Source: a virus
Virus record (IMG/VR): IMGVR_UViG_3300031146_000002
Location: 177-64,176 of that record
Strand: one strand, 5' to 3'
DNA: 64,000 nucleotides
Shown here: positions 362-63,265 of the stretch, piece after piece
Layout: each line of letters opens with the position of its first letter
Position numbering within the stretch: the stretch's first letter is position 1
Notes under the pieces: model-generated
Databases searched by the model: none
Told to the model about the DNA's origin: nothing
Seen by the model: the letters and a program-made list of their open reading frames with translations, nothing else
Made by a program: the position numbers and the translations under genes

Positions 362-382
362 GGGCGGGTCGCTCACCCGCCT
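362..382 (-). promoter_or_regulatory. Leader hairpin element, variant copy (AGGCGGG-TGAGCGA-CCCGCCC)
   Basis: Same loop as other copies; T-A to G-C compensatory stem change; just upstream of RBS of the gene starting at 341. Confidence 0.65.
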
Positions 383-583
383 ACGCGACCCAGGCCGGCA
401 CCGTAGGTGCGGGCCTGGGTTTGCGTCGCGCCCACATCCTACGGGCGCTAGTCACAGTTATGCAAACTGCGCGGACCCCTGCGCGGCGGGCGTCGGCGTG
501 TCGCGCGCGCCGCGGAACTGGCCAGCCGCTAAGCTGAAGGAGCTTCCTTTAGATCCTGGTTCAGGGTCTCGTGGATGAAGGCG

Positions 584-618
584 ACAGAGCCCCACCTCAT
601 CTCAGGGTGGGGCTCTGT
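584..618. terminator. Probable intrinsic terminator hairpin downstream of TA-like pair
   Basis: ACAGAGCCCCACC / GGTGGGGCTCTGT perfect 13-bp inverted repeat. Confidence 0.6.
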
Positions 619-653
619 TACGTCTACGAGGCTGGCGAAACGAACCGCGGTGT

Positions 654-938
654 CTATGCCGCCTCGCGCTTGGCGAGGCGGGCGATCGCTGCCTGTAGGT
701 CGGCGACGCTCACGGTGGCGGACTGGTCAATCTCGGTGAGGCCTCTGTCGAGGATCTCCCGCATCAGCGCGGAGGGCTTCATCTGGCGTCGCTCGGCCTC
801 GCGGAAGATCCGCTCGGCCAAGGCGACCGGCATCCGCAGCGACATGACGACGGTTTCGGCTGGCTGGCCGGTGTCGGGAACCGCCCGGGACCAGTCGCGT
901 GACTCGAGGTGATCCGCCACTCTCATCGTCTTACCCAT
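654..938 (-). CDS. Ribbon-helix-helix/CopG-like protein, putative BrnA-like antitoxin
   Basis: VVMSLRMPVALAERIFREAERRQMKPSALMREIL is an RHH pattern; overlaps upstream toxin-like gene by 8 nt. Confidence 0.65.
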   Translation of the reverse strand: MGKTMRVADHLESRDWSRAVPDTGQPAETVVMSLRMPVALAERIFREAERRQMKPSALMREILDRGLTEIDQSATVSVADLQAAIARLAKREAA

Positions 939-1212
939 GGCTCTCTCCCCTCATCCGTGCGATGGCCTGGATCTCCTCCTGGTCGAGGTACCGGGCGGAC
1001 AGGACGAGGTACTCGTCGTCCCCCTGCTCGATCAGGGCGACCACCAGCCAGGTTCCGGCCCGGTCCTGGCCGGCGATGTGGAGGACCGAGCCGATGTGCC
1101 GTCGGGCGACCCTCCCGCCGTGGAGTACCTGCAGCACCGAAATGGGGCTGACCTCGACCTCGGCCAACCGGTCAAAGGTCTCCTCGGTGAAGTGGTATCG
1201 CTCCTCGGGCAC
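931..1212 (-). CDS. Putative BrnT-like toxin
   Basis: 93 aa; GQDRAGTWLVVALIE...VLSARYLDQEE resembles the BrnT pattern; precedes an RHH gene. Confidence 0.55.
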   Translation of the reverse strand: MPEERYHFTEETFDRLAEVEVSPISVLQVLHGGRVARRHIGSVLHIAGQDRAGTWLVVALIEQGDDEYLVLSARYLDQEEIQAIARMRGESHG

Positions 1213-1284
1213 ACGACCACTGTATTACAAGTGTAAACATGATCTTCTAATCTGGTAGCAGTTAGCAGCAGATTTGGCGGAAAG

Positions 1285-1328
1285 CGGTTGGGCCCGGGGT
1301 GGCTGTACGCCCACCCCGGGCCCAACCG
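1285..1328. terminator. Terminator hairpin downstream of Bet-like gene
   Basis: 18-bp perfect inverted repeat CGGTTGGGCCCGGGGTGG with 8-nt loop. Confidence 0.7.
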
Positions 1329-1340
1329 TCCGTGCCAGGA

Positions 1341-3046: not shown

Positions 3047-3532
3047 GTGCCCATGCCTGTAGAGGTAGATCCTGCCCGGCTTGCTGCCCTGGGCATGGCT
3101 GAGGACGACCAGTACCGGGAAGCCTTCATCGCCTACCTTGACCGCGGCCGGCCCGACGATCTCGCCGTGCTGTTCCGGCACCCAGCCCTTCGGCGCCGCA
3201 CGCAAAAGGCAATCGCGAAGGTGCTCCGATACGCGGATCGGCACGGCGACCGTCACGGCGCCCCCGAGAAGGACCGCGCCGCGTGGCGGCACCGGCGCGA
3301 GCAGGCGAAGGCTGAGCGCGCCGTGCTGCTCAGCCTGGCTGATACCGAGGCAGGCCCGCCTTCCCTGCGTCGGCTGGCCTTCCAGCGGCTCGCCGAGGAG
3401 TACGCGGACGACTGGCGGACGCTGGTGGATACCCGCCCTTCGCCGGTGAGTATGCGCGCGTTGGTCCAGCTCACCCCCGGGCATGCCCGTCGGTTCCTCC
3501 AGCTGCTCCGCGAGGAGCGGGAGCGGGCCTAG
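3047..3532 (+). CDS. Hypothetical helical protein
   Basis: 161-aa ORF with GAGGGGG RBS-like sequence; converges on the holin-like gene. Confidence 0.65.
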   Translation: MPMPVEVDPARLAALGMAEDDQYREAFIAYLDRGRPDDLAVLFRHPALRRRTQKAIAKVLRYADRHGDRHGAPEKDRAAWRHRREQAKAERAVLLSLADTEAGPPSLRRLAFQRLAEEYADDWRTLVDTRPSPVSMRALVQLTPGHARRFLQLLREERERA

Positions 3533-50670: not shown

Positions 50671-50713
50671 AGGGCCAGTCTACGCCACGAAACTGTGATT
50701 TAGCGGCACCTAG

Positions 50714-50750: not shown

Positions 50751-50780
50751 GTTCGATGTCTTGTTGGTACAGTCTTGATC

Positions 50781-51074: not shown

Positions 51075-51084
51075 CGGCAGGCCG

Positions 51085-52512: not shown

Positions 52513-52519
52513 GGGCAGC

Positions 52520-52547
52520 ATGGTGCCCCCCGTGCAGGGCTTGTGGC
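52520..52547 (-). promoter_or_regulatory. Putative late promoter
   Basis: GCCACAAG-N14-CACCAT-N7-GTG. Confidence 0.6.
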
Positions 52548-52772: not shown

Positions 52773-52850
52773 CTTGTGCCTCCCTTCCCTGCACAGTCTG
52801 CCCTGAGATGTCGGTACGCGCGCCACATCAAGATCTGGTATCATCAATGT

Positions 52851-52871
52851 GTGCGGGCGAGCGACCCGCAT
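52851..52871 (+). promoter_or_regulatory. Leader hairpin element with TATCAT six nt upstream
   Basis: GGTATCAT-N6-GTGCGGG-CGAGCGA-CCCGCAT. Confidence 0.75.
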
Positions 52872-52891
52872 GAGGATGAAGTGAGGAACCG

Positions 52892-52975
52892 GTGGATCAC
52901 TCCGCCCAGCGGTACGGCCTGGACCGGAATCAGCTGGCGGCCGCGAGCCCATACCGGTACACCGGACCCGCCTGA
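52892..52975 (+). CDS. Candidate 27-aa small ORF (or sRNA)
   Basis: GAGGA RBS, GTG; MDHSAQRYGLDRNQLAAASPYRYTGPA; bracketed by promoter element and terminator. Confidence 0.4.
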   Translation: MDHSAQRYGLDRNQLAAASPYRYTGPA

Positions 52976-52979
52976 CGCG

Positions 52980-53014
52980 AGAGCCCTCCGGCTATGCCGG
53001 GGGGCTCTTCTTTT
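52980..53014 (+). terminator. Intrinsic terminator
   Basis: AGAGCCCTCCGG/CCGGGGGGCTCT stem followed by TCTTTT. Confidence 0.7.
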
Positions 53015-53345
53015 GGGCGAGAAACACCGTAATCCGCATGGCTTTTTCGTCGTGGCTGTGGCCGTCCCACTCGCCGTCGTAGGGCGGCGACGGCGGTGTC
53101 CCGGTGGGCAGATGCCAGGACACCTGGCCCGTGGGCAGGTCGATGTAGGCAACCACCGAGAAGTCGCGGAACTTCCGGTCGTGGCCGTATCCGGCCCGCA
53201 GGCCGGCGGCGAGCGCCAGCTCGACCGATCGGATGACGAGCTTGTTTCGCAACGCCCATTCGGTTGAGGTTCCGGCATCGGGCTTGTGGTCGAGCCGCTG
53301 GTCAAGCTCGAGCAGTTGGCGAAGACAGTCCCGTAACTCGTGCAC
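52992..53345 (-). CDS. WDGH-type domain protein
   Basis: VAYIDLPTGQVSWH...WDGHS. Confidence 0.7.
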   Translation of the reverse strand: MHELRDCLRQLLELDQRLDHKPDAGTSTEWALRNKLVIRSVELALAAGLRAGYGHDRKFRDFSVVAYIDLPTGQVSWHLPTGTPPSPPYDGEWDGHSHDEKAMRITVFLAQKKSPPA

Positions 53346-53493
53346 GGGTGCAATTTACTGCGATCGTTGCGGCTCCCTGCGCATTGACTCCCAGATACGA
53401 GGGTCGCGATTTCGGCCGGTATTTGACACGAATCCGAACGACCGGTAAAAGCGGATCAACCTGGCCACGTTTGTTCGCTCGCCAGCGGGCGGC

Positions 53494-54693
53494 TCAGGGG
53501 TCAGTCCGATTCGTAGCCCGTCCGTCGCCGGTAAGGCGCTTGGAAGTCACGCCGTCCGGGCGGCGCCGATAGCCCATGCGCTCCCAGAAGCCACGCGACG
53601 AGTCGAGAAGGGTGATCTCCTCGACGCCCTCGTCCCGGAGTACGACTTCCAGCCGCTCGACCCACCGCCGCGCGATGCCGCGGCCACGGAACTGGTCGCG
53701 GACGGAGATGCCGTCGACCTCGGCGCGCAGCTCCTCGCCGTTGGTCTTGAGCTGGATGCTCCATGACCCGGCCCACTGCTCGTCGATGTAGAAGTCGCCG
53801 GTGATGCCGCCGATGCGGAAGCTGCCGGTGCCGCTGACGTAGGTGCTGCGGATCTCCGACCGCTCCCCCGCCGGGTCGCTGTACTGCAGATGGTCGGTCG
53901 CCCACTGCCGCAGCCCTGGGCTTTCCGCGCCGAACGACTCCGGAGCGGACGACAAGGTGTCCAGCAGCGCTCGGCGCGGCTGCTCCCCGCCCGATTCTTC
54001 GCCTCGCTCGGGGGCCGTGTCGTCCTGAGCGCCGCCAGGGTTGCGCCGCCGCTCGAACCACTCACGTACGGCCCGGCGGGAGTAGACCGCCCGCCCGTTG
54101 CGGTAGTCGATGGGCTTCGGGAAGTCCGGGTGCCGGGCCGCCCAGTTGGACACGGCGGATGGCCTGACGCCGAGCTCGCGGGCGATGTCGGCGGCGTACA
54201 CCTCGTCGTCCGGGTCCCGGCCCTCCGTGGGAGGGTTGACCTCCGCCGGCCTGGACTGGCCCGGGCGGAGCAGCCCGAGCTGCTCGCGCCGTTCCCGCCG
54301 CTCACGCTTCTCCCGCTCGGCTTGGGCCTGGCGCTCACGCGCCTCGCGTTGCGCCTGCTGCCGCCGATCGAGCCACGCGAGGACCTCAGAGCGGCGGTAC
54401 ATGACGGATGCGGATGGGCTGTCGATCCGCTTGGGGAAGTCCGGGTGCCGGGCCGCCCAGTTGGTGATGGCCGCGCGGGTGACGCCCAGCTCACGGGCCA
54501 GCTGGGCAGATGTAGCGATGTCAGGGTCGTTGATGGCTCCCGCCGACTGTGATCGGCGCCGACCACGGCCGCCCCTGCCGTGCTCCGGTGCCCACCGCCC
54601 ACCGACGGAGATCCCGCCGATGATCGTGCCGGCGGCCCAACGCAGCTGGTCCGGGCGAAACCGTTTGACCTCGAATCGGGGCACGAGCAGCAC
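53494..54693 (-). CDS. Tagged effector: two wHTH domains plus GNAT acetyltransferase
   Basis: MLLVPRFEVK-RFRPDQLRW...GGRW; ARELGV...NWAARHPDFPK twice; VRDQFRGRGIA...FWERMGY. Confidence 0.82.
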   Translation of the reverse strand: MLLVPRFEVKRFRPDQLRWAAGTIIGGISVGGRWAPEHGRGGRGRRRSQSAGAINDPDIATSAQLARELGVTRAAITNWAARHPDFPKRIDSPSASVMYRRSEVLAWLDRRQQAQREARERQAQAEREKRERRERREQLGLLRPGQSRPAEVNPPTEGRDPDDEVYAADIARELGVRPSAVSNWAARHPDFPKPIDYRNGRAVYSRRAVREWFERRRNPGGAQDDTAPERGEESGGEQPRRALLDTLSSAPESFGAESPGLRQWATDHLQYSDPAGERSEIRSTYVSGTGSFRIGGITGDFYIDEQWAGSWSIQLKTNGEELRAEVDGISVRDQFRGRGIARRWVERLEVVLRDEGVEEITLLDSSRGFWERMGYRRRPDGVTSKRLTGDGRATNRTDP

Positions 54694-54699
54694 GCGGGG

Positions 54700-54727
54700 A
54701 TCGTGCATGCCCGAAAGGGCTTGTGAC
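54700..54727 (-). promoter_or_regulatory. Putative late promoter
   Basis: GTCACAAG-N14-CACGAT-N6-GTG. Confidence 0.6.
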
Positions 54728-54738
54728 TCAGGCGTGAA

Positions 54739-55566
54739 CTACGCGAGCACCGTCGGCTTCTCGAGCACGACGACGGTGCCGTCGGGCAGCTGCCAGCGGT
54801 ATCCGGGGCGGATCACCTGGGCGGTACGGCCGCGGGCGATCGATCCGATCGGGGTGTGCTCGCTCGGGTCGAACATGACCCGCTCGCCGGGCTGGGCGAT
54901 GGGCTCGAATCCGGCCTGGGACATGAGCCGACGAACCTCGGCGACGATCGAGTCCCGGGGCTCGCCGGCGCTGACCATCGCCTCCACCTGGGTGGCGATC
55001 GCGGCGAGCGTGCCCGCAGCGACCTGCTCGATCTCGGTGCGGGTGTTGACGTCGTGCACCCGCCCGACCGTCGGCGTGATCGGCAGGTCCTGGTCGGGCT
55101 GCCGCCACGTGTAGGAGACCGCGCTGCCGGTGCCGGTTGGCTCGAGGCGCAGCCGGCGCATGTGGGACCGGACCCGGTGCAGCACCGCTCGGTCCGAGGC
55201 GCCCTTGGCGATGTCCTCCTCGACCTGGGAGGCCAGGCCAACGACCTCGCGGGCGGTGTCGGTGCGGACCTGCTCGAGCGCCGACGACGGGCCGGTCGTG
55301 CCGAGAGCTTCGCGGCCGGCGTCGGTGAGCTCCCACCCACCGTCCGGCCTCTGCCTGATGAGCCCGCGGCGGCTCAGGGCCCGGATCGTTGCTGGCCGGC
55401 CACCGCTGCCGCCGGAGGCGAGCGACCGGAGCGCCCTCGTCTGGGGCAGCGACAGCCGTGGGCCCCCGATCCTCACCCAGCGGCCAGCGCCGGGCATGCC
55501 GCGTGGGATGCGCGGCTGGTCGGGCCGGTACTTGACCTCGAGGCCGGGGAAGAGCAGCACGGGCAC
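54739..55566 (-). CDS. Tagged protein: wHTH plus GrpE-like C-terminal domain
   Basis: MPVLLFPGLEVK-YRPDQPRIPRG..GAGRW; RALSRRGLI...WELTDAG; GERVMFDPSEH...VIRPGY. Confidence 0.75.
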   Translation of the reverse strand: MPVLLFPGLEVKYRPDQPRIPRGMPGAGRWVRIGGPRLSLPQTRALRSLASGGSGGRPATIRALSRRGLIRQRPDGGWELTDAGREALGTTGPSSALEQVRTDTAREVVGLASQVEEDIAKGASDRAVLHRVRSHMRRLRLEPTGTGSAVSYTWRQPDQDLPITPTVGRVHDVNTRTEIEQVAAGTLAAIATQVEAMVSAGEPRDSIVAEVRRLMSQAGFEPIAQPGERVMFDPSEHTPIGSIARGRTAQVIRPGYRWQLPDGTVVVLEKPTVLA

Positions 55567-55572
55567 GGCGGG

Positions 55573-55600
55573 ATCATGCCCGCCTGGACCGCCTTACGGC
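55573..55600 (-). promoter_or_regulatory. Putative late promoter
   Basis: GCCGTAAG-N14-CATGAT-N6-GTG. Confidence 0.65.
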
Positions 55601-55612
55601 TCGGGCCCGCTC

Positions 55613-55861
55613 CTAGTCGGTGGCGGGCCCGTCGCTGAGGATCTCGTTGAGGCGCCGGAAGAACCGGTCCTGCGCCTCGGCGGGGGCGTCCATCATCGTC
55701 GCGTGCAGGTTGTAGTCGGACGATTCCCGGTTCGTTCGGTCATCAGGCACGGGGCCGTCTACGCCGGCGGTGAGCTGCTCAGCGATCCACTGGCTGTGGA
55801 GCGCCTGCATCTCTCGGGCGCGCCGTACCCGCTCGTCGACGGGAAGAAGTCTCACCGCCAT
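55613..55861 (-). CDS. Small partner protein of GNAT effector (homolog of 39624-39845)
   Basis: Directly after GNAT gene; aligns with 39624-39845. Confidence 0.7.
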   Translation of the reverse strand: MAVRLLPVDERVRRAREMQALHSQWIAEQLTAGVDGPVPDDRTNRESSDYNLHATMMDAPAEAQDRFFRRLNEILSDGPATD

Positions 55862-55892
55862 GTCCTAAGTGTACCAGTTGCATCGATGGGCT

Positions 55893-57719
55893 TTACAGGT
55901 ACAGGACGCCGCGCCAGCTCGAGCCCAGCATCAGCCACTTGCCTGGCCAGATCGCGTTCCGACCGCCTTGGCCTTCCTGGCGGCCGAATCGGGCGATCTC
56001 CGGGGCGCTTGCCGGGCGTCGACCGGCGAGCATGTCGTCAATGTAGTCGAGCAGCTCGTCCATCTGCTGACGAGTCAGCCCCGCCGGGGGTGCGTTCCGT
56101 GCGGCCTCGACCCTGGTGCGTGCCCATCTGAGGAACGAATCAGCGGCGGCCTCGTTCTCGAACTCGAATCCCTGGGTGGCCCATGTGTAGCCGCCCACGT
56201 CGATGTTGGCGTGGAGGCGGACCCTGGTAACACCCGAGCGCCGGTACCAGTCGAAGAGGTTTGCCATGAGGCCGTGGGCGAACCCCGTCCCCCGCACGTT
56301 CGGCTCGAGGCGCAGGTAGGAGTGGTAGGCAACGAGTTCGCCGGTGAACGGATCGCGGTCGATCCGCGCTTCGGCGTGGCCGACCCGCCGACCAGTGGCG
56401 TCGTAGACGCTCGCGTCGAATGAAAGCCCGCTGGCCCGGCCGTCACTGCCACGCGCCACGGTGGCGCGGTCGACCTCCAGCCGCAGATCGCCGTACGTTC
56501 CCTCGACACCCATGCGGATGCCCTGCACGGCCTGCTCTTCCTGGGTCGACGCGGTAGCGATGAGCTCATTCAGCGGCCGGGTCCTACGGTTGAGGAGCAT
56601 GGACGGGTCCGGTGCTGCGACCGTGGGAGCGGCCGGCTCCCGGACCGTGACCCTCGACGTTCTAAGCCGTGGTGTCGGCGTCGGTGGGGTTTGCCGCGCC
56701 CGCCGGCGGGCCTGTTCCTCGGCGAACAACGCCAGGGCATCCATTGCGGCCTGGCGTGTGCGGAACGGTCCGCCAGGCACCCGGATGCCGGGCTCACCCG
56801 CAGGTGGAAGGGCGTACGCCTCCCATCCCGTCGAGCCTCGCTGACGCACCACCTGGCCCACGTACTCCCCGCCGCCGGATCTAGCGCTCGGGCCGGCGTA
56901 GACGTCGTACACGCCGGCCATGGCGGGAGCGCGGACTGCCCTGGTAGCCGGCGGCGTCCTTGTGCTCGGTGCGGATTCACCGGCTGCTGCGTCCATTAGC
57001 AGCCGGATCGCGCTGTCGCGGTCGTCGACAGCAGCTGCGGCACCCGGGGAACGCACGATCCGGCCATCCGGGGCAAGCGCAAGCCACCGCCCGGCCGGGG
57101 TGTCAACGACGATGCCCAGGTTGCGTTCGCCCTGCGTGACCCGGAACGCGGACCGCTCAGGAGCGGGCCAGGACCACGGGGTGAGCGTCACCTCCGGCAC
57201 GGACGTCGCCGCCTGGCGGGCCGCGCGGTCCTGCATCCGCTGGTGGTGGGCCAGCACCGTTTGAACCGCGGAGGCTTTCAGCCTGTTCGGGCCGTTGACC
57301 TGCAGCCACTGCCCGTCGGCGTCCTCAACGGACCACCCGAAGCTCCAGCGGTGGATGGCTCCCACCCTGGTGGAGCCCACGTAGATGTCGTGACTCTCCC
57401 TGGCAGGCCCCCATTGGTTCCGCGCCGGGGTCTCCCGACGAACCCCGTACACACCGGTCATGCCACCGGTGAGGTTCCGCGGCAGGGTTACCGCGCCTTC
57501 CGGAAGGCCTGCTGGGCGGGTACGTCTCGTTGACCGTGGCGCCGACCGTCGCGTGGTCGTCCGAGCCGCGCTGCTGGACCGCCGCGGCCTGGCCGATGAG
57601 CCGCCGAGGATGGCCGCCCAGCGGCCGCCGACGGCGATGCCGCCGATGATGGTGCCGGCGGGGTGGCGCGGCTGGTTGGGGTTGAAGCGTTTGACGGTGT
57701 ACCGCGGCGTCAGGAGCAC
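55893..57719 (-). CDS. Tagged effector with C-terminal GNAT-like domain
   Basis: MLLTPRYTVK-RFNPNQPRHP...GGRW; LEPNVRGTGFA...ANIDVGGYTWATQGF. Confidence 0.8.
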   Translation of the reverse strand: MLLTPRYTVKRFNPNQPRHPAGTIIGGIAVGGRWAAILGGSSARPRRSSSAARTTTRRSAPRSTRRTRPAGLPEGAVTLPRNLTGGMTGVYGVRRETPARNQWGPARESHDIYVGSTRVGAIHRWSFGWSVEDADGQWLQVNGPNRLKASAVQTVLAHHQRMQDRAARQAATSVPEVTLTPWSWPAPERSAFRVTQGERNLGIVVDTPAGRWLALAPDGRIVRSPGAAAAVDDRDSAIRLLMDAAAGESAPSTRTPPATRAVRAPAMAGVYDVYAGPSARSGGGEYVGQVVRQRGSTGWEAYALPPAGEPGIRVPGGPFRTRQAAMDALALFAEEQARRRARQTPPTPTPRLRTSRVTVREPAAPTVAAPDPSMLLNRRTRPLNELIATASTQEEQAVQGIRMGVEGTYGDLRLEVDRATVARGSDGRASGLSFDASVYDATGRRVGHAEARIDRDPFTGELVAYHSYLRLEPNVRGTGFAHGLMANLFDWYRRSGVTRVRLHANIDVGGYTWATQGFEFENEAAADSFLRWARTRVEAARNAPPAGLTRQQMDELLDYIDDMLAGRRPASAPEIARFGRQEGQGGRNAIWPGKWLMLGSSWRGVLYL

Positions 57720-57730
57720 GGCCGGATGAT
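57616..57730. repeat. 115-bp direct repeat, copy 1 (copy 2 at 58761-58875), encoding the tag
   Basis: Four mismatches, all synonymous in the tag. Confidence 0.9.
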
Positions 57731-57753
57731 CCGCTGGCCGCTCCGTTTACGTC
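57726..57753 (-). promoter_or_regulatory. Putative late promoter
   Basis: GACGTAAA-N14-GATCAT-N6-GTG. Confidence 0.65.
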
Positions 57754-57757
57754 GAGG

Positions 57758-58864
57758 TCAGCGGCCCCGTCTGCGGCTGCGCTGCGCGGCCGCCAGCGAC
57801 CCGTCGAACATCCAGTCGTAGTCCGGGACCTTCGGCTTACGACGGTCGTCGGCCGCCTTGGTTTCGACCAGCTGGCCCGTGTCGGGGTCATACACGCCGA
57901 CCTGCTCGAGCTCGATCAGGTAGCGGTCGCCATCCTCCGCTGAGGTCTTCTCGACGCGCACAATGCGGAACCTACCCCCGGTGACGTACTCCCGCGGGTC
58001 GTAGCGCTCCATGAACTGGGTGTATTCGCCGGCCGGGAGGTCATCGGGCGCGTCCAGTTGCCCACCCCGGACCGCCTTGGCGTCCCGGACCACGAACGTC
58101 ACGTCGGTTCCGTATCGGGCAACAACGTCCGCACGGGTGCCGAACGACGCGAGCGGCAGGTCGATGAAGGCGCCTTCCTTGAAGACAGCCGGCAGACCCA
58201 TGCCCATCAGGTCGACCCCGCGGTACAGCTCGGGCACACGAGGCGCGTCGCGAACGCCGCTCATCAGCACGTAGGCCTGCATGCGTCGAAGCTCTGGGAC
58301 GTTTAGGTTCCGCGTCACGCTGAAGCCGACGCGAGCCCCCGGGGCCTCGTCGTGGGAGACGTGTACATCCGCCTCGCGCCCTTCTGTGTCGAAACCGGCG
58401 AGCTCGAAGGCAGCGCGGCGGATCTCCCGTGCTGGAATCCAGTAGTCCCAGTCGCCACCCGACGCCATCAGCCGGGCTAGCACCTGCGGCGTGACCTCAC
58501 CGTCGTCCAGGCCGACCTCATCGAGCAGGCGGAGCTTCACGCCGGTCGTGTCACCGATCCGAACCCTGATCCGCTCGAGCTCAATCTGGCTCTCGCCGGC
58601 CTGACGCCGCCGGTGGTAGTCCCGCACCTGCTCGAGCAGCTCCTGGGCCCTCTCCCGGGCCCGGGAGCGAACGAGCGCCAGCGGATCGGGCGCGGCCGGC
58701 GCCGACGCTGCAGACCCTCCCGGCCAACGCCGCGAACGAAGGGCGCGGCCCAGGACCCGAGCCCAGCGGCCGCCGACGGCGATGCCTCCGATGATCGTGC
58801 CGGCGGGGTGGCGCGGCTGGTTCGGGTTGAAGCGCTTGACGGTGTACCGCGGCGTCAGGAGCAC
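57758..58864 (-). CDS. Tagged effector: ADP-ribosyltransferase (VIP2/exoenzyme, R-S-E type)
   Basis: LYRG, LASFGT, PREYVTGGRFRIV. Confidence 0.8.
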   Translation of the reverse strand: MLLTPRYTVKRFNPNQPRHPAGTIIGGIAVGGRWARVLGRALRSRRWPGGSAASAPAAPDPLALVRSRARERAQELLEQVRDYHRRRQAGESQIELERIRVRIGDTTGVKLRLLDEVGLDDGEVTPQVLARLMASGGDWDYWIPAREIRRAAFELAGFDTEGREADVHVSHDEAPGARVGFSVTRNLNVPELRRMQAYVLMSGVRDAPRVPELYRGVDLMGMGLPAVFKEGAFIDLPLASFGTRADVVARYGTDVTFVVRDAKAVRGGQLDAPDDLPAGEYTQFMERYDPREYVTGGRFRIVRVEKTSAEDGDRYLIELEQVGVYDPDTGQLVETKAADDRRKPKVPDYDWMFDGSLAAAQRSRRRGR

Positions 58865-58875
58865 GGCCGGATGAT
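58761..58875. repeat. 115-bp direct repeat, copy 2
   Basis: Matches 57616-57730. Confidence 0.9.
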
Positions 58876-58898
58876 GCCGACCAGAGGGGACTTGCGTA
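58871..58898 (-). promoter_or_regulatory. Putative late promoter
   Basis: TACGCAAG-N14-CATCAT-N6-GTG. Confidence 0.65.
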
Positions 58899-58909
58899 CG
58901 AACAGCGAG

Positions 58910-58939
58910 AGGCCCCCGACCTTTGTGGATCGGGGGCCT
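58910..58939. terminator. Terminator hairpin after ArdC-like gene
   Basis: AGGCCCCCGA/TCGGGGGCCT. Confidence 0.6.
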
Positions 58940-58945
58940 GGGGCG

Positions 58946-59347
58946 TCAGGCGGCCTTCCGCTCGGCGATCTCGTCCGTCTGGGAGATGTCGAACACGTAG
59001 GCCACCCGGTAGCGCATGCGCCCTTCCTCGACGACGTTCCCCTCATCGTCGGTGACGGGCTCCGTCTGACCGGCGGGGGCGAAGATCAGGATGCCCTGCT
59101 CACCCTTGCGGACCTGCCGACCCCGCTTCTGCCAGGCCTTGTACCCGTCGACGTCGGTGGCGGTCGGCATCTGCATCGCGATCAGCAGAGCGTTCCGCAT
59201 CGAGTAGCCGTCGAACCGGGCGGTGATGACCGCGATCTCGGCCTCGCTCAGCTCCGCCTCGTACTGCTCGAGCCTTGCCTTGAGGTCGGCGATCTGCTGG
59301 CGCCGGGCGGCGATGTCGGCTGCGGTCTTGCGGCGACGGTAGCTCAT
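58946..59347 (-). CDS. Stand-alone ArdC-like N-terminal ssDNA-binding domain protein
   Basis: YSMRNALLI, GYKAWQKRGRQVRKGE.GI.I, VFDISQT. Confidence 0.88.
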   Translation of the reverse strand: MSYRRRKTAADIAARRQQIADLKARLEQYEAELSEAEIAVITARFDGYSMRNALLIAMQMPTATDVDGYKAWQKRGRQVRKGEQGILIFAPAGQTEPVTDDEGNVVEEGRMRYRVAYVFDISQTDEIAERKAA

Positions 59348-59365
59348 CGTGGCGATCTCCCTCCT

Positions 59366-59386
59366 GTGCGGGTCGCTCACCCGCAC
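59366..59386 (-). promoter_or_regulatory. Leader hairpin element with TATCAT six nt upstream
   Basis: GGTATCAT-N6-GTGCGGG-TGAGCGA-CCCGCAC. Confidence 0.75.
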
Positions 59387-59427
59387 ACACATATGATACC
59401 ACGATGATCGTCAGTGGCGCAAGATCA

Positions 59428-59781
59428 CTAGCCGGCGTAGTAGGCGTTCGGCTGGCCCGCCCTGGCCGGGTCCTCCTCACGGCCGCTCCGCTTCGCGGGC
59501 TTCTTCGCCGGTGCCTTCGCCCCGGAGCTCGTGTCCGCGGTACGGCCTTCGTCGGCCGGCTGATTCCTGGGCTCCTCGCCGGCGTTCTGCTGCGCTGGCT
59601 GGCCACCTCGAGGTCGGGTCCGCGGCTTCGGGTTGCGGATCCAGTCGGGTAGGTCGTCGACGGTCTCGGCCTCGTCCGCGGCCCGGAGGAGCTCGTCGAA
59701 CTCGGGGTCGCCGGGCAGCAGCTGCATGACGTTGACGGCGCGGGCGCACGCTCGGCTGATCTCGGGGTCATCCTCAGCCAC
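59428..59781 (-). CDS. Small protein downstream of ART-like effector
   Basis: GGAGG RBS; acidic N-terminal half, low-complexity tail. Confidence 0.65.
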   Translation of the reverse strand: MAEDDPEISRACARAVNVMQLLPGDPEFDELLRAADEAETVDDLPDWIRNPKPRTRPRGGQPAQQNAGEEPRNQPADEGRTADTSSGAKAPAKKPAKRSGREEDPARAGQPNAYYAG

Positions 59782-59840
59782 GGCTGGCCTCCTTCACGCT
59801 TGTCGATCGGTCTGGCATCGTAACCAACGCCGTACCGCCG

Positions 59841-60665
59841 TTAGGCCTTCTCAACGATCACCGCGGTCCGGTTGAAGATCACGATGTAGTCGCGGCCCTC
59901 GACGTGCATCGCGTCGTAGCCGAGCCGCGCAGCCAGCGCCCCGGGGTCGATGAACACCCCCGTCTGCTCGTACTCCTCCCGAGCCAGCCGGGCCATCTCC
60001 AGCCCCGATGCGATCACAGCGTCGCGGTGCAGGACCATGCGGATCATCACCCCGCCCATGTCGGGCTGGGCCCACGCACTGACCTTCTCCCGGTTCATGC
60101 CGGTGTAGATGCCGTTGCCGTGGGTGCCCTCGCCGTAGTAGGCCGGGCCAGTGCGGAACTGCTCGGCCTGCTGCAGAGAGATCTTCCGCTTCTCCCGGCG
60201 GGATAGGGTCTGCCCATCCCGGCCGCGCTGGTGGATACCGCGCCACAGCTCGATGCCGCCGGCCTCGATCTCCGCATCCAGGTCTGCTGCCGTGCCCACC
60301 CGCGGCGGGCCGTCGAAACCCTGCAGGTGCGCGTACGCAGCCACCAGCCTGGAGTTGGGCGTCGAGTGCTCCTTGACCGCCTCGAGGGCCTCGGTGATGT
60401 CCACGTCCCGGCCAAGGTCTCGGCCACGAACCATGATGTGAGTCGTCACCCTAGGCTGCTGCTGGCCCGACGGCCTGCCAGGCTGCTGCTGTCCTGGGAC
60501 CGGCCCAGGGCCTGACGGGCTCGCCGATCGTCGGCCACGGCCGCCACTGCTCCGCGGGGCATCGGGGACGTCGATGAACCGTCCGTCGGGCCCGCGGGGG
60601 TGCAGCAGGGCGTTCCACGGCCGGCGGATCTTCACCTCGTATCGGGGCACCAGGATCGCCGGCAT
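59841..60665 (-). CDS. Tagged effector with probable ART-fold domain
   Basis: MPAILVPRYEVK...WNALLHPRGPDGRF; ELWRG, YYGEGTHGNGIY, LGYDAM, YIVIFNR. Confidence 0.65.
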   Translation of the reverse strand: MPAILVPRYEVKIRRPWNALLHPRGPDGRFIDVPDAPRSSGGRGRRSASPSGPGPVPGQQQPGRPSGQQQPRVTTHIMVRGRDLGRDVDITEALEAVKEHSTPNSRLVAAYAHLQGFDGPPRVGTAADLDAEIEAGGIELWRGIHQRGRDGQTLSRREKRKISLQQAEQFRTGPAYYGEGTHGNGIYTGMNREKVSAWAQPDMGGVMIRMVLHRDAVIASGLEMARLAREEYEQTGVFIDPGALAARLGYDAMHVEGRDYIVIFNRTAVIVEKA

Positions 60666-60672
60666 GCCGGCC

Positions 60673-60700
60673 ATCATCCGCACCAGCCCCGGCTAAGGTC
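60673..60700 (-). promoter_or_regulatory. Putative late promoter
   Basis: GACCTTAG-N14-GATGAT-N7-ATG. Confidence 0.6.
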
Positions 60701-60722
60701 CGGGCCCCTGCCGGCAGGCATG

Positions 60723-60762
60723 AAAAGAGGGCCACCCCGCCGGCTGAACGGGATGGCCCTCC
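60723..60762 (-). terminator. Intrinsic terminator
   Basis: AGGGCCATCCCG/CGGGGTGGCCCT stem followed by CTTTT on the minus strand. Confidence 0.7.
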
Positions 60763-60809
60763 TCGGCGTGCCTGGCGTTCAGCCGGACCGCCAGGTCCGA
60801 CCGAGCCTG

Positions 60810-61436
60810 TTACGCCTGTGCACCAGCGTAGGTGCCGTTGACCGGGGCGGCCGGGGCAGCCGGGCCGACCACCGGGCTCTTGGGGGCGATGTCGTCGATC
60901 TTGGGAGCGACGGGCGCCTTGCGTGGCCGCCGCGTCCTCGTCTTGCTGCTGGCCGCGATCCTTTGCGCCGCTGGCGTCATCCGAGGCTGGGCGGTTTGCT
61001 CCGCGCGCTTCTTCTGCCGCCGGCGTTTGGGTCGACGGCCCCTGATCATGGAAACGCCGGTCTCCACCACCAGGATCACGACGACTAGGAACAGGCCGTA
61101 ACCCGCTACTCCCCAGGCTCCGTCGATGAGGCCCGAGCCGACGTTGCAGGCGGTGGACATCGCGAAGCCGAAGATCATCACCCAGAACCCGTACCGGCGG
61201 GCGTGGCGCGTGAACGTCAGCAGCTTGCCGTACACGGCCACGAAGTCGATGAAAATGAATAGGGTTTCCGCCTGGTAACCGGGTAGGCCTAACCAATGCC
61301 CGATATGGGTGATGTGGGCGCGGGAGATGAAGAGGCCATACCCCATGATCGCGAAGCCGGAGACGTAGCTCAGGATCTCTGCGGCGAGATCCAGCCGACT
61401 GAGCTTCTTCTTGCCCCCCTGCTGCTTCTTCTCCAT
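60810..61436 (-). CDS. DUF2637-like multi-TM protein with basic tail
   Basis: ISRAHITHIGHWLG..GYQA..LFIFIDF; four TM segments; GGAGG RBS. Confidence 0.7.
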   Translation of the reverse strand: MEKKQQGGKKKLSRLDLAAEILSYVSGFAIMGYGLFISRAHITHIGHWLGLPGYQAETLFIFIDFVAVYGKLLTFTRHARRYGFWVMIFGFAMSTACNVGSGLIDGAWGVAGYGLFLVVVILVVETGVSMIRGRRPKRRRQKKRAEQTAQPRMTPAAQRIAASSKTRTRRPRKAPVAPKIDDIAPKSPVVGPAAPAAPVNGTYAGAQA

Positions 61437-61634
61437 CGGTCCCTCCTCCGATGTGAGGCCAGGTGCGTCCTGGCGTCCGGGGCTCGCGCTTTCGCTGGCC
61501 CCCGCGACCAGCGACGTGCTGCGGTAGCCCTTTTGGGTCGGCGCTGCGGTCGCGGCTCGTGCCGTTCGCGCGCTCGAGGCCCGTTGGACTGCACCTGGGG
61601 CGATGGGGCGACGATTGAGTTGTCAAGGAAACCA

Positions 61635-61655
61635 GTGCGGGTCGCTCACCCGCGC
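61635..61655 (-). promoter_or_regulatory. Leader hairpin element with TATCAT six nt upstream
   Basis: TATCAT-N6-GCGCGGG-TGAGCGA-CCCGCAC. Confidence 0.7.
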
Positions 61656-61705
61656 ACAACAATGATAGTTGTGGTCGGGAGGCTATGCAAGCCTAGTCAT
61701 GAAGA

Positions 61706-61733
61706 AACCCCGGCACCGTGCAGTGCCGGGGTT
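61706..61733. terminator. Terminator hairpin
   Basis: AACCCCGGCAC/GTGCCGGGGTT. Confidence 0.65.
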
Positions 61734-61754
61734 AGCCCCTTCCCACCTTGGCCG

Positions 61755-61973
61755 CTATGCCTCCTGGCTGCCCTCCTCCTTGGTGTCACCAGCCTCGGCC
61801 GGGCCCTCCGAGCTGCCAGCCTGCTCGGCGGACTCGTCCGTGCTGTCGCCCGAGCTGACCGCCGAGTCGCTGGCCTCCGGCGCCGGGTCCGTCTCGCCGC
61901 TCGAGGCGTACTCCTGCGCGGCGGTGTCCGGGCCCGACGTGTCGACCGCGATCGCGGTCTCGTCTCCTGCCAC
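61755..61973 (-). CDS. Small acidic, probably disordered protein
   Basis: GGGAGG RBS before GTG. Confidence 0.55.
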   Translation of the reverse strand: MAGDETAIAVDTSGPDTAAQEYASSGETDPAPEASDSAVSSGDSTDESAEQAGSSEGPAEAGDTKEEGSQEA

Positions 61974-62075
61974 TCTGCCTCCCGAATCGGTCGGTGCGAT
62001 CGTTCGGGTACCGAAGCTAGGCACGAAACCGGCCAGAGACCTGGAGCAACTTCTGCTCGGCGTGTCGTGCGCGGA

Positions 62076-63224
62076 CTACCGCGCACCCCGCAGCCGCGCC
62101 TGCAAGTCGAGCAGCTGCCGGTGCAGCTCCACCCGCTCGCGGAGCAGAGCCTCGGCCTCGGGCCGGCTCATTCGAGCTGGCACACCCACCTTGGCGATGT
62201 TCCGCGAGAGGGTCACCGTGTTACGGCTGGCCGGCCCGATGACGGCCTGCAGCTCAGCGAGTGACCACCCATACGTGAGGTGAAGCACCGCGGCGGCCTG
62301 GTAGATAGTCTCGCGGACCTCCGCACGCGCCTTCCGCAGAGCGGACCGTGCCGGAACCTTTCCCCGGCCCGTCGCGAGCGCCGTCTCGACCTGCTCGGAG
62401 AGCGCCTCGATGTTAGGGACCTCGGCCGGCCGGTAGCGTTGCCGCTTGGCGTGGCGGACGGTCAGCCGCTGCGCCTCGTTCAGGTCCTCGATACGGTCAC
62501 GCAGCTCCCGGGCCCGGATGGAGAGGTCGGCGAGCCGCCGGTCCAGGTTGGGCCGCTTGGGAGCCGGCTCGGCCGCGAGGGTTCGGTCCCGCCCGGTGCC
62601 GGCGATCCGCCGGACCGGCTCGACCGGCCAGCCCCAGTGCTCGATGACCGCCCGGGCGACAGCGTTCCGCTCGCCGGTCACCTCGGCGAGCTCCGCCTTC
62701 GTGGAGGCGATCCGCTCCCGAATGTGGGCGAGCCGCTCGTCGGGGGCGTCCGGCAGGTCGTCCGGCGGGGTCGGGGTGTGCCGCGACGCCTCCCAGGCGC
62801 GTGCCGCGGCCTCGAGCGCCTCGGACCAAACACGGTGCACGCCAGCCGACAGCTCAACTAGGTCGGTGAGCCGCTCCTCTGCCTTCGGAACCCGCTTGGG
62901 CTGGGGGTTCCGAAGGACGGCCCGCTCGAAGGCCGCGCGGTCGCGCGGGCCGACACCGATGATCCGGCCGACCCGGCTCAGCGGCCAACCTGCCCGGTGC
63001 ACGAGGTACGCGGCGACGACGTTGCGCTCGTCAACGAGGCGGTCCCGCAACACGTGCGCCCGGCAGGCGACCATCTCCAGTTCGATGGCGCGCCGCACGG
63101 GGTCGTCGATCCCGCTGGCCGTGGCCAGCGCGTCGCGCAGCGCGTCGATGTCGTAGCGAGTCACGGTTGGCTCCAGAGCCTCGTCGTCAAGCACCACATA
63201 AGTGGCCTCGACGGTGATTGTCAT
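62076..63224 (-). CDS. Protein with three repeated helix + HTH-like modules
   Basis: GWPLSRVGRIIG, GWPVEPVRRIAG, GWSLAELQAVIG; GGAGG RBS. Confidence 0.7.
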   Translation of the reverse strand: MTITVEATYVVLDDEALEPTVTRYDIDALRDALATASGIDDPVRRAIELEMVACRAHVLRDRLVDERNVVAAYLVHRAGWPLSRVGRIIGVGPRDRAAFERAVLRNPQPKRVPKAEERLTDLVELSAGVHRVWSEALEAAARAWEASRHTPTPPDDLPDAPDERLAHIRERIASTKAELAEVTGERNAVARAVIEHWGWPVEPVRRIAGTGRDRTLAAEPAPKRPNLDRRLADLSIRARELRDRIEDLNEAQRLTVRHAKRQRYRPAEVPNIEALSEQVETALATGRGKVPARSALRKARAEVRETIYQAAAVLHLTYGWSLAELQAVIGPASRNTVTLSRNIAKVGVPARMSRPEAEALLRERVELHRQLLDLQARLRGAR

Positions 63225-63244
63225 TGTCGTTGTACCTCCCATCC

Positions 63245-63265
63245 GTGCGGGTCGCTCGCCCGCAC
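63245..63265 (-). promoter_or_regulatory. Leader hairpin element
   Basis: GGTAGCAG-N5-GTGCGGG-CGAGCGA-CCCGCAC. Confidence 0.7.

Follow-up and report, generated by a model that had tools for sequence, protein, structure and literature searches.

A covarying hairpin with a near-invariant loop precedes the ribosome-binding sites of non-virion genes in related actinophages and is probably a docking site for a regulatory factor

Introduction

The described systems closest to the element reported here are multi-copy phage repeats that sit ahead of early or non-structural genes. The promoter-early stem-loops (PeSLs) of the T4-type phages RB49 and phi1 are intergenic cassettes present in multiple copies, each combining a GC stem-loop with an early promoter of host type and a Shine-Dalgarno (SD) sequence, before variable, non-essential early genes (Arbiol et al. 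2010; PMC2839356). Their stem-loop functions as a terminator, has no fixed loop and is found at five different positions with respect to the promoter (PMC2839356). The SAS/ESAS elements of Cluster K occur in 10-20 copies per genome, in one orientation, at non-structural genes only and just before the start codons: SAS is a conserved 13-bp asymmetric sequence that includes the SD and lies 3-8 nt before the start, and ESAS consists of 17-bp inverted repeats in which the arm sequence is conserved and the spacer varies from 4 to 13 bp (PMC3203893; PMC12699233).

We analysed a 64,000-nt stretch of viral DNA (positions 177 to 64,176 of IMG/VR record IMGVR_UViG_3300031146_000002; hereafter the window, numbered from its first letter) from a temperate actinobacterial phage with genes for integrase, ImmA/IrrE-like protease and XRE-type HTH proteins, in which a 21-nt hairpin recurs ahead of genes. 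We found no published description of this hairpin in the literature. An Rfam scan of the window returned no match at gathering scores, and the sole match at E<=10 around the copy at 59366 was a 7-bit chance hit.

Results

Nine hairpins lie ahead of genes in the same orientation

The initial annotation had reported nine copies of the hairpin, three of them with altered stems, and a hairpin is indeed present at every one of these positions. A search with a covariance model (CM) trained on 64 copies out of five sequences, a kind of search that the annotation had proposed for related phages, recovered exactly these nine in the window at 22.9 bits or more (range 22.9-37.2); the next window match, at 20.1 bits (43145), is a different, 'late' element. 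The variant copies also agree with their earlier description, namely a T-A to G-C exchange at 362, the stem CGCCCG/CGGGCG around the loop TGAGCGA at 2632, and GTGGGGG-CAGTCGA-CCCCCAC at 24055. A loose pattern search also gave matches at 1461 and 16670, neither of which is a hairpin of this type. In transcribed-strand order the copies read 5' arm, loop YGAGCGA, 3' arm:

362-382, minus strand: hairpin AGGCGGG-TGAGCGA-CCCGCCC, 34.3 bits
2632-2652, minus strand: hairpin TCGCCCG-TGAGCGA-CGGGCGC, 23.4 bits
24055-24075, minus strand: hairpin GTGGGGG-CAGTCGA-CCCCCAC, the weakest copy, 22.9 bits (lowest)
38869-38889, plus strand: consensus hairpin GTGCGGG-CGAGCGA-CCCGCAC, 36.0 bits
49900-49920, minus strand: hairpin ATGCGGG-TGAGCGA-CCCGCAC, 32.1 bits
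52851-52871, plus strand: hairpin GTGCGGG-CGAGCGA-CCCGCAT, 33.7 bits
59366-59386, minus strand: consensus hairpin GTGCGGG-TGAGCGA-CCCGCAC, 37.2 bits
61635-61655, minus strand: hairpin GCGCGGG-TGAGCGA-CCCGCAC, 31.6 bits
63245-63265, minus strand: consensus hairpin GTGCGGG-CGAGCGA-CCCGCAC, 36.0 bits

Because seven copies lie on the minus strand, the loops given earlier on the plus strand as TCGCTCA and TCGCTCG are TGAGCGA and CGAGCGA in the sense of the RNA. All nine copies have the orientation of the gene downstream, and in eight of them the start codon follows the end of the copy by 9-22 nt. Copy 362 is followed by the SD AGGGAGG and, at 20 nt, by the ATG at 341, and copy 2632 lies 22 nt ahead of the ATG of a gene for a RecT-family annealing protein (1341-2609). 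Copy 49900 is separated by only 4 nt from the stop codon of the gene before it and by 17 nt from the ATG (49882) of a 231-aa gene, after which comes a tyrosine integrase gene (47992-49092). An SD and a start codon likewise follow the copies at 38869 (GGAGGGAG, then TTG 38906 of a 77-aa gene, in a divergent region adjoining the large terminase gene), 52851 (GAGGA, then GTG 52881 of a 128-aa gene), 59366 (AGGAGGGAG, then ATG 59347 of an ArdC-N-like anti-restriction protein) and 63245 (GGGAGG, then ATG 63224 of a 382-aa gene). Copy 24055, with TACGAT 4 nt upstream, stands 15 nt before the ATG (24039) of a 92-aa gene within the virion block; its loop deviates (CAGTCGA), and in the predicted context fold its 3' arm favours the downstream GGGGG/SD region. 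Copy 61635 opens a leader of about 200 nt, the next convincing start being ATG 61436 with the SD GGAGGAGGG.

The hairpin recurs in related phages at corresponding genes

The same element, with the N-GAGCGA loop constant and the stems changed in a compensatory manner, is present in G001, an 87-kb IMG/VR phage (about 24 copies; CheckV completeness 95%), in an 86.7-kb Micromonospora contig (about 23 copies) and in two metagenome contigs (three and four copies). A sister form with the loop AGAGCA occurs in the cultured Streptomyces phage Gilgamesh and in many IMG/VR contigs of 84-128 kb. Nearly all copies in these relatives are co-oriented with the next gene. In G001 and the Micromonospora contig, 4-18 nt separate the end of the hairpin from the motif GGAGACCC, and in Gilgamesh 13-15 nt separate it from the SD; the virion modules of G001 and of the Micromonospora contig contain no hairpin. 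When a 6.9-Mb Micromonospora genome was searched with the CM, the 20 best hits all fell on the 86.7-kb phage contig; the element is a property of the phages and not a host regulon.

Across phages the hairpin is kept at the RecT gene and at genes 3-341, 49187-49882 and 62076-63224, even though the proteins are only 28-38% identical. Homologues of gene 3-341 lie behind hairpins in the Micromonospora contig, the Gilgamesh homologue of the 231-aa gene (49187-49882) also does, and so do weak homologues of the 382-aa gene in G001 and the Micromonospora contig. RecT homologues in G001 (hairpin at 38643), the Micromonospora contig (18077) and G002 (22266) are preceded by the same GCCCG/CGGGC stem as at 2632 in the window, a private stem thus kept in four genomes. 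Judged on such comparisons, the element is old and moves together with its genes. A tblastn search (E<=1e-3) for a non-structural protein common to all five hairpin-bearing genomes found none, and the loop is retained in phages that have unrelated early proteins. The contigs L185 and L186 have nothing in common with the window except a 30-70-nt cassette of up to 96% identity.

The arms covary around a near-invariant loop

The 64.2-kb genome contains 62 occurrences of the hexamer GAGCGA, and the complementarity of its flanks is bimodal, with 54 occurrences allowing 0-2 pairs and eight allowing at least five. In G001, 21 of 58 occurrences form hairpins by the same measure (at least five flanking pairs, no pre-selection for pairing), and the background frequency of any hairpin with a 7-nt loop is 0.25%. 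The bimodal flanks, set against this background, and the recovery of exactly nine copies by the CM exclude chance.

Among the 64 copies from five sequences, changes on both sides were seen at all seven stem pairs. The inner five pairs were formed in 249 of 250 cells of this alignment set, a proportion that is partly built in because copies were selected by requiring 4-5 pairs beside the loop. Nonetheless, the observed covariation was reached by none of 500 shuffles, and pairing was lost when partner columns were slid. Where G001 and the Micromonospora contig (about 78% nucleotide identity) have orthologous sites, they differ at only 1 of 112 loop positions, the free first position, versus 24 of 224 arm positions. 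Several of the arm changes are compensatory, among them C-G to G-C at 77205/53316 (twice) and A-U to G-C at 34929/13889. The GC-rich stem always forms five pairs, with up to eight possible, around the 6-7-nt loop N-GAGCGA, and its arms appear as GCGGG, GCCGG, CCCGG, GCCCG, CGCGG or GCGGA, each still matched by its complement, so that only the asymmetric centre is fixed. The alignments indicate that selection acts on the structure and not on the sequence of the arms, and the view of the initial annotation that this is a structured element, not a plain dsDNA operator, is borne out by the two-sided stem changes and the near-invariant loop.

Isolated 21-mers are predicted to fold with -12 to -15 kcal/mol (-14.7 kcal/mol for copy 59366). 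Compared with shuffles of this 70% GC sequence, the in-context folding energies of the leaders showed no significant gain (z of -0.1 to -1.9), and most predicted in-context folds leave the SD outside the stem. In the three best-sampled genomes, with no bias towards G.U allowed, the inner pairs held about 3-4 G.U versus 0 A.C, numbers too few to prove which strand folds.

The position of the hairpin follows the SD rather than the promoter

The box TATCAT, reported at the outset to lie 6 nt ahead of four copies, occurs only four times in the window on both strands together, each time exactly 6 nt upstream of a hairpin:

38857-38862, plus strand: TATCAT -10 box (TGG-TATCAT, extended -10 type), before hairpin 38869
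52839-52844, plus strand: TATCAT -10 box, before hairpin 52851
59393-59398, minus strand: TATCAT -10 box, before hairpin 59366
61662-61667, minus strand: TATCAT -10 box, before hairpin 61635

In these four copies the box is preceded by TGG, and other copies have TAnnnT boxes; a -35 consensus was looked for upstream of the window hairpins and none was found. The distance between -10 box and hairpin is 6 nt in the four window cases, 6-8 nt in L185 and L186 and 7-9 nt in G001, and by the usual -10-to-start spacing transcription would begin at the base of the hairpin. The RNA data are low-depth metatranscriptome contigs in which 5' ends are not resolvable and DNA carry-over is possible.

The earlier suggestion that the hairpin forms the 5' end of the transcript is plausible for copies with a -10 box 4-8 nt upstream, but it does not define the element. 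The nearest -10-like boxes lie 53 nt upstream of copy 362 (TAGGAT) and 39 nt upstream of copy 2632, and about ten of the 24 copies in G001 (about 40%) lack a -10 box and follow the stop codon of a gene in the same direction at 4-50 nt. The constant feature is the place just upstream of the SD. As this holds for the promoterless copies within operons as well, the element is tied to the start of translation and not to the promoter.

Discussion

Relatives that include a cultured Streptomyces phage place the same hairpin before the ribosome-binding sites (RBSs) of non-virion genes, and for this reason we think that it is probably an undescribed docking site of a putative factor that co-controls non-virion messages. 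Our preferred reading, to which we assign a probability of roughly 0.58, is a sense-strand mRNA leader hairpin of early, non-virion genes whose loop is bound by a putative factor controlling translation or stability. Of the candidates put forward in the initial annotation, a protein-bound RNA hairpin acting on translation or stability fits best, the binder being putative. Copy 61635, so far removed from the next good start codon, speaks against this reading. That the hairpin acts as RNA, that a factor binds its loop, and in which direction the effect would run are points that we infer from the features described above.

Under the preferred reading, the stem would serve only to present the 6-7-nt loop, N-GAGCGA or, in the Gilgamesh branch, AGAGCA, and a sequence-specific factor encoded by phage or host would bind the exposed loop. 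The hairpin stands a few to about 20 nt ahead of the SD, between two cistrons in the case of intra-operon copies; promoter-proximal copies begin 0-3 nt from the predicted transcription start and would therefore also cap the 5' end. Because the site adjoins the 5' end as well as the ribosome landing zone, the bound factor would govern the access of ribosomes and/or the 5'-end-dependent decay (RNase E/J) of all these messages together. The result would be a post-transcriptional switch that sets the leadered genes apart from virion and 'effector' genes, whose promoter element is a different and apparently leaderless one. In a bolder form, which is possible but which we put forward tentatively, the hairpin would be the operator of a regulon-wide post-transcriptional switch throughout a clade of temperate actinophages with large genomes (about 65-130 kb), in which a single RNA-binding protein, either a phage protein of the late/virion module or a conserved actinomycete factor, reads (N)GAGC(G)A on 10-25 leadered messages per genome. 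Such a switch would shut off, or protect, the leadered messages as a block, and late and 'effector' genes would escape it because their leaderless mRNAs arise from a different element. If this is true, early/late control of a new kind would exist in Actinobacteria, and it would be directly testable in cultured Gilgamesh.

5'-terminal stem-loops of the ompA type stabilise bacterial mRNAs, and a purely structural 5'-terminal or intercistronic stem-loop that blocks RNase E/J decay and insulates the RBS without a specific binder is conceivable but unlikely. The proximity of promoter-proximal copies to the predicted start, the tightly kept spacing to the -10 box and the stable predicted hairpins with the SD mostly outside the stem are consistent with it. 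However, a protective hairpin needs no particular loop, yet the loop is far more constant than the arms and persists across phages with unrelated early proteins, and several copies lie 22-53 nt from a promoter or within operons. A boxB-like recruitment site for a phage antiterminator on RNA polymerase, as in lambda N/nut, or a RAT-like target, is a reading that we consider improbable. In its favour are the short GC stem and the conserved, purine-rich loop, which would lie in nascent early RNA just past early promoters, and a small arginine-rich protein (3047-3532, plus strand), one of the few non-structural proteins shared with G001. In lambda nut, boxB is a 5-bp stem with a GNRA-like pentaloop next to a conserved boxA, at one or two sites per genome that lie after early promoters and ahead of terminators. 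The boxB-type candidate of the initial annotation fits poorly with what we found: the loop has 6-7 nt and could at best present the pentaloop GAGCG when N is U, the aligned copies show no boxA-like flank conserved beyond the -10 box and the SD, genomes hold 9-25 sites instead of one or two per operon, and the site is placed by the SD and not by a promoter or terminator. Moreover, no homologue of the arginine-rich protein was detected in either G002 or Gilgamesh.

The temperate lifestyle and the repressor-type proteins bring to mind a dsDNA operator or 'stoperator'-like roadblock through which a prophage repressor (the HTH_3 protein at 34738-35139 with its ImmA-like partner) would silence non-virion genes in lysogens. 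The consensus copies cover +1 to +21 of their promoters, a classic operator position, and many copies lie in one orientation in short intergenic gaps, like Cluster A stoperators. Still, a dimeric DNA binder reads arms, whereas the arms are rewritten here and only an asymmetric 6 nt is constant; the repressor gene has no copy nearby (no CM match at 34.1-35.7 kb), and G002 and Gilgamesh bear the element without a homologue of the HTH_3 protein. The operator reading is unlikely, and we give it little weight. Hardly more probable is a PeSL-like cassette, in which a terminator or attenuator lacking a U-tract would insulate early genes and the repeat would serve mainly as a homology patch for module swaps. 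At copies with a -10 box, the arrangement of early promoter, stem-loop and SD resembles that of T4-type PeSLs (PMC2839356), the cassette is all that L185 and L186 have in common with the window, and of the 60 homology-block boundaries in the comparison of G001 with the Micromonospora contig, 12 are no more than 50 nt away from a hairpin. This enrichment is far above random placement but equals the hairpin-bearing share of gene junctions, about one quarter, and so is what between-gene boundaries would give. Nothing upstream needs terminating at copies 24055, 38869 and 52851, which lie in divergent regions; no T-run follows any window copy, Gilgamesh stop codons already have a separate, much longer GC hairpin behind them, and a recombination patch leaves the invariant loop with its covarying arms unexplained. 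An intrinsic terminator as such was rejected, as there is no U-tract and the copies precede an SD and start codon instead of ending a transcription unit; a terminator scan of the window called none of the nine hairpins.

Finally, we regard as very improbable a hairpin active as ssDNA, either as a promoter on the extruded non-template strand in the manner of the N4 virion RNA polymerase or as a replication or entry signal. Covariation does not separate RNA from the sense DNA strand, the late element of the phage likewise has a -10-like box within an inverted repeat rich in GC, and the contig represents only about half of the genome, so that a special polymerase could be encoded outside it. However, at about half of the copies a conventional -10 box is already suitably spaced for a start at the hairpin, stems of 5-7 bp are short for extrusion, and no phage RNA polymerase was seen in the window, where the largest ORFs are below 1000 aa and no polymerase family was recognised among those scanned. 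As to activity on incoming ssDNA, which the initial annotation had listed, nothing speaks for it, since the DNA of tailed dsDNA phages does not reach the cell in single-stranded form.

Among known phage RNA operators, those of lambda/P22 boxB-N, the MS2/PP7 coat proteins, T4 gp43 and RegA resemble the hairpin in that a short stem displays a specific loop, the stem is free to vary if paired, and the site lies beside an RBS or at the start of an early RNA. By contrast, they occur once or twice per genome, or, for RegA, at many but unstructured targets, whereas here 9-25 structured sites are found, and none resembles the N-GAGCGA loop in sequence. The E. coli ompA-type stabilisers match the promoter-proximal copies as stable hairpins 0-3 nt from the 5' end, but they have no loop requirement, and the internal copies and those 22-53 nt away do not fit them. 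Cluster A mycobacteriophage stoperators, bound by L5 gp71, are similarly numerous (about 25 per genome), lie in intra-operon gaps in one orientation and belong to temperate actinophages; unlike the hairpin, they are 13-bp asymmetric duplexes without dyad or covariation, while here 6 nt are fixed and the flanks pair.

With PeSLs the hairpin shares a cassette that can be the sole sequence common to otherwise unrelated gene neighbourhoods (PMC2839356), but it differs in its invariant loop, covarying stem, SD-fixed position, many promoterless copies and lack of a T-run, and in phage group and host phylum. Like the Cluster K SAS/ESAS elements, the hairpin is restricted to non-structural genes, keeps a single orientation and recurs at orthologous genes, without sequence similarity to GGGATAGGAGCCC. 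A SAS-like extended SD, GGAGACCCC, whose sequence differs from SAS, lies 0-3 nt before starts at 30 sites in G001 and 31 in the Micromonospora contig, about two thirds of them with a hairpin ahead; the window contains neither this motif nor a SAS-type 13-bp sequence. Relative to ESAS the arrangement is reversed: here the arms, of 5-8 bp, vary, and the loop is fixed in both length and sequence.

Nine hairpins in the sense of the gene that follows

All nine 21-nt elements described in the initial annotation (362, 2632, 24055, 38869, 49900, 52851, 59366, 61635 and 63245) were confirmed, and a covariance model gave exactly these nine copies, with scores of 22.9-37.2 bits. Read in the sense of the downstream gene, each copy consists of a 5' arm, the loop YGAGCGA and a 3' arm, with the exception of 24055 (loop CAGTCGA), a weak copy and the window's only one within the virion block. 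The orientation is that of the next gene in 9/9 copies, and in all but one of them the hairpin ends 9-22 nt before a start codon equipped with a GGAGG-type Shine-Dalgarno (SD) sequence. Chance does not account for this set: GAGCGA occurs 62 times in the genome, and at these sites, taken without pre-selection for pairing, the number of complementary flanking pairs is either 0-2 or at least 5, and eight of them are hairpins, versus a background of 0.25%.

The hexamer TATCAT, noted before at 6 nt upstream of four copies, occurs only four times in the window, each time in this very place, behind a TGG or comparable extended -10 context. No -35 accompanies the TATCAT boxes in the window, and a sigma-70 two-hexamer scan of 49-64 kb returned zero promoters, those of this region lacking a -35. 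Going by the usual -10 spacing, transcription would begin at or beside the first base of the hairpin. The earlier proposal that the hairpin forms the 5' end of the transcript is plausible for the TATCAT copies; for 362 and 2632, the nearest -10-like boxes lie 53 and 39 nt upstream, respectively. Copy 49900 begins 4 nt past the preceding stop codon. Four phyllosphere metatranscriptome runs contained exact low-depth contigs from window positions 44001-64000, two of them spanning the hairpins at 52851 and 63245; such contigs are uninformative on 5' ends and may stem from carry-over DNA.

The element is carried by related and by otherwise dissimilar phages

Exact-pattern scans gave the same element in four further sequences.

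Further carriers of the element
G001 (87-kb IMG/VR phage relative): ~24 copies
L185 (metagenome contig): four copies
L186 (metagenome contig): three copies
Micromonospora sp. NPDC006766, 86.7-kb contig: ~23 copies

The Micromonospora contig is circularly permuted relative to G001, at ~78% nucleotide identity. As the 20 best model matches in this 6.9-Mb Micromonospora genome all fall on the phage-sized contig, the element is borne by the phage and not by the host. L185 and L186 have only the cassette (promoter box, hairpin and SD) in common with the window; G001 shares almost exclusively virion genes with it. A sister form was found in Streptomyces phage Gilgamesh (MN234216), where at least 11 hairpins present AGAGCA as the loop on varied GC stems, with ACCAC, GAGGAAC and ATG coming next in this order; some lie 7-8 nt after TGGTGTACTAT, and others are internal to operons, preceded by a long GC hairpin distinct from the element. 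In the 91-kb relative G002, three to four copies have the loop CGAGCGA or TGAGCA, and an IMG/VR scan with one AGAGCA version yielded ~30 matches in the order promoter, hairpin, SD, ATG on contigs of roughly 84-128 kb, the remaining matches being an unrelated coding repeat. The hairpin is kept at orthologues despite protein identities of 28-38% (RecT, 3-341, 49187-49882 and 62076-63224), and four genomes have retained the private GCCCG stem at RecT.

No copy was found in Arthrobacter and Microbacterium phages with terminases 37-40% identical. A 17-mer core searched against 185,579 species genomes gave at least 120 single matches, almost all within unrelated genes, and among the matches listed the sole true relative was the Micromonospora contig. 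When the cassette was compared with 50,697 phage records by blastn, only chance matches came up; Rfam contained nothing resembling the element, and no description of it was found in the literature.

The window covers nearly all of its source contig (64,188 bp, 70% G+C), which is judged about half complete; since a protein identical to that encoded at 34149-34577 is recorded on a 119-kb contig, the full genome probably measures about 119 kb. Terminase identity is 48% with Gilgamesh and 63% with G001.

Virion, packaging and lysogeny genes of the window
28101-29540: major capsid
29603-31459: protease
31514-33877: portal
34738-35139: XRE-type HTH protein (lysogeny set), ImmA-like protein adjoining
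37026-38783: large terminase
47992-49092: tyrosine integrase (lysogeny set)

Several side observations concern these phages. An immunity-type cassette (34738-37042, plus strand), coding for the XRE HTH protein, an ImmA/IrrE-like protease and a DUF6545 protein, lies in reverse orientation in the interval that separates the terminase gene from the portal operon; G001 and the Micromonospora contig have this layout too. The gene at 3047-3532 (plus strand), which diverges from that of RecT, encodes a 161-aa arginine-rich helical protein of no family, 42% identical to its G001 counterpart and among the very few non-structural proteins that both have. A tRNA-Ala (GGC) called by ARAGORN at 11588-11667 (plus strand) falls inside a 618-aa tail-region gene, on its antisense strand, and is probably spurious. 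Metagenomes of phyllosphere, mixed cultures, soil and manure, produced by several studies, contain near-complete DNA copies of the phage. In Gilgamesh, an 11-15-bp GC hairpin with no T-run follows the stop codon in nearly every gap between genes 125 and 138 (111-119 kb), and the start of gene 137 is probably mis-called, since the annotated position (118223) overlaps an AGAGCA hairpin and an ATG with a good SD lies ~45 nt further on.

The stem covaries around a fixed loop

Across an alignment of 64 copies, CGA of the loop is invariant and GAG at least 90% conserved, and the stems GCGGG, GCCGG, CCCGG, GCCCG, CGCGG, GCGGA and GAGGG all occur, each with its exact complement. Two-sided changes were found at 7/7 pairs. 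Of the 250 cells that make up the inner five pairs, 249 are paired, a percentage partly built in because collection required 4-5 pairs beside the loop; the GAGCGA bimodality test and the comparison of orthologues are free of this bias. No shuffle matched the observed covariation, and sliding the register reduced pairing to 34-47%. When orthologous hairpins of the Micromonospora phage and G001 are compared, the arms differ at 24 of 224 positions, several in a compensatory manner, and the loop at a single one of 112, the free first base. These data bear out the initial view of a structured element that keeps pairing and loop while its stem sequence changes. Isolated hairpins have a predicted fold of -12 to -15 kcal/mol; within the GC-rich leaders the folding energy was indistinguishable from that of shuffles, and wobble asymmetry offered too few cases to show which strand folds. 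As judged from sequence, the pattern of fixed loop and free stem says that the element would fold and that the loop would be the part being read.

The hairpin is tied to the translation start

About 60% of the copies in G001 and the Micromonospora phage lie behind a private promoter motif, TTAAT-N3-4-GCTACACT-TTGGGGTGT (for example L053:6187-6220, minus strand, in G001), and the remainder, which have no -10 box, are found 4-50 nt past a co-directional gene's stop codon. Two copies are 22-31 nt downstream of the promoter motif. The spacing between hairpin and ribosome-binding site stays constant, with 4-18 nt to GGAGACCC in these two phages and 13-15 nt to the SD in Gilgamesh. The hairpin is therefore tied to the translation start rather than to the promoter, and from its occurrence within operons it must be transcribed there. 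The virion modules of G001 and the Micromonospora phage contain zero copies.

Only 3-4 nt separate the TTAAT block from the extended -10, so that the block does not occupy a -35 position; it may be the site of a phage transcription factor. An extended SD motif, GGAGACCCC, stands 0-3 nt before ~30 start codons each in G001 and the Micromonospora contig, and its ACCCC part has no match to the anti-SD; about two thirds of the GGAGACCCC sites have a hairpin 4-18 nt upstream. A second helix between an upstream GGGGU and the ACCCC after the SD was considered for G001 and rejected, as promoter-less copies without GGGGU keep GGAGACCCC.

Virion and 'effector' genes carry a different element

The virion and 'effector' genes use a late element with a cATGAT-type -10 inside a GC inverted repeat. 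It comprises an ACGTAA-like (-35-like) sequence, ~17 nt, and GGCCGGG-(c)ATGAT/ATCAT/GAGCAT-CCCGGCC, directly followed by GTG.

Late elements of the window
43146-43169, minus strand
46807-46831, minus strand
47866-47889, minus strand
55567-55589, minus strand
57720-57742, minus strand
58865-58887, minus strand

With the start codon at the expected transcription start, messages from the late element would be leaderless. The build is similar to that of the hairpin (arm, 6-7-nt core, arm), and the hairpin model scores one late element at 20.1 bits.

A loop-specific binder is the favoured reading

A hairpin that is merely protective needs no invariant loop, and on this ground we favour a loop-specific binder. 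A dimeric DNA-binding protein reads the arms of its site; here the arms are free with complementarity kept, the repressor gene has no hairpin copy beside it, and two carrier genomes gave no member of the repressor family, making a duplex DNA operator unlikely, in line with the preference for a structured element over a plain operator expressed at the outset. Antitermination of the boxB type, a candidate in the initial annotation, fails on loop type, on the absence of boxA and on copy number. A terminator role is unlikely because no T-run follows any copy, three copies lie in divergent regions and Gilgamesh has a separate terminator-like hairpin. An enhancer pairing with rRNA through the loop was dismissed, as the Micromonospora 16S rRNA holds no loop complement (TCGCTC and TGCTC are absent), and the enrichment at module boundaries vanishes under an intergenic null. 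The sense hexamer GAGCGA itself occurs three times in the 1516-nt Micromonospora 16S rRNA (L210; GGAGCGAAAGCG, GGGGAGCGAACAGG and GGTGGAGCGAATCC) versus ~0.4 expected, which may be chance.

The hairpin borders the ribosome landing zone on its 5' side and in many copies would form the 5' end; this position suggests that a candidate factor bound to the loop might control ribosome access and/or 5'-end-dependent decay. More speculatively, such a factor on leadered, hairpin-tagged messages could split this class from the leaderless virion and 'effector' genes. A phylogenetic profile found no non-structural protein common to all five carrier genomes. Beyond virion and packaging proteins, the sole protein in all five hairpin-bearing genomes is a 142-aa product encoded just upstream of the portal gene (34149-34577, minus strand), with no Pfam or PHROG family and only six database relatives; a 41% relative occurs in Micromonospora echinospora.

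Implications and relation to known leader elements

Conservation extends over uncultured phages of phyllosphere and soil as well as a (pro)phage of Micromonospora, and the sister form in a cultured phage of Streptomyces lividans makes experiments possible at present. Should there be a binder, hairpin and binder would constitute a new RNA-protein gene-control pair for Streptomyces and relatives, which are not known to possess Hfq, ProQ or CsrA. In annotation, the hairpin flags genuine translation starts and sets apart a gene class of its own.

Among known elements, the PeSL cassettes of T4-type phages (PMC2839356) and the SAS/ESAS of Cluster K mycobacteriophages (PMC3203893, PMC12699233) come closest: they likewise occur in many copies, at early or non-structural genes only, in one orientation, near start codons and conserved at orthologues; GGAGACCCC of G001 and the Micromonospora contig also recalls the start-associated sequence of Cluster K. 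However, the PeSL stem-loop is a terminator with no fixed loop (PMC2839356), and ESAS has conserved arms and a variable spacer (PMC3203893, PMC12699233). By analogy, the working mode would be most like that of single-copy phage RNA operators (boxB, coat-protein, gp43), yet regulon-wide here. We assign the element to none of these families and file it under repeated early-gene leader cassettes. Repeated motifs at gene starts, such as the Cluster K SAS/ESAS, entered the actinophage literature in 2011, and as late as 2025 their function was still described there as unverified (PMC12699233); compared to them, the present element is the cleaner case, its fixed loop and free stem narrowing the mechanisms to testable ones.
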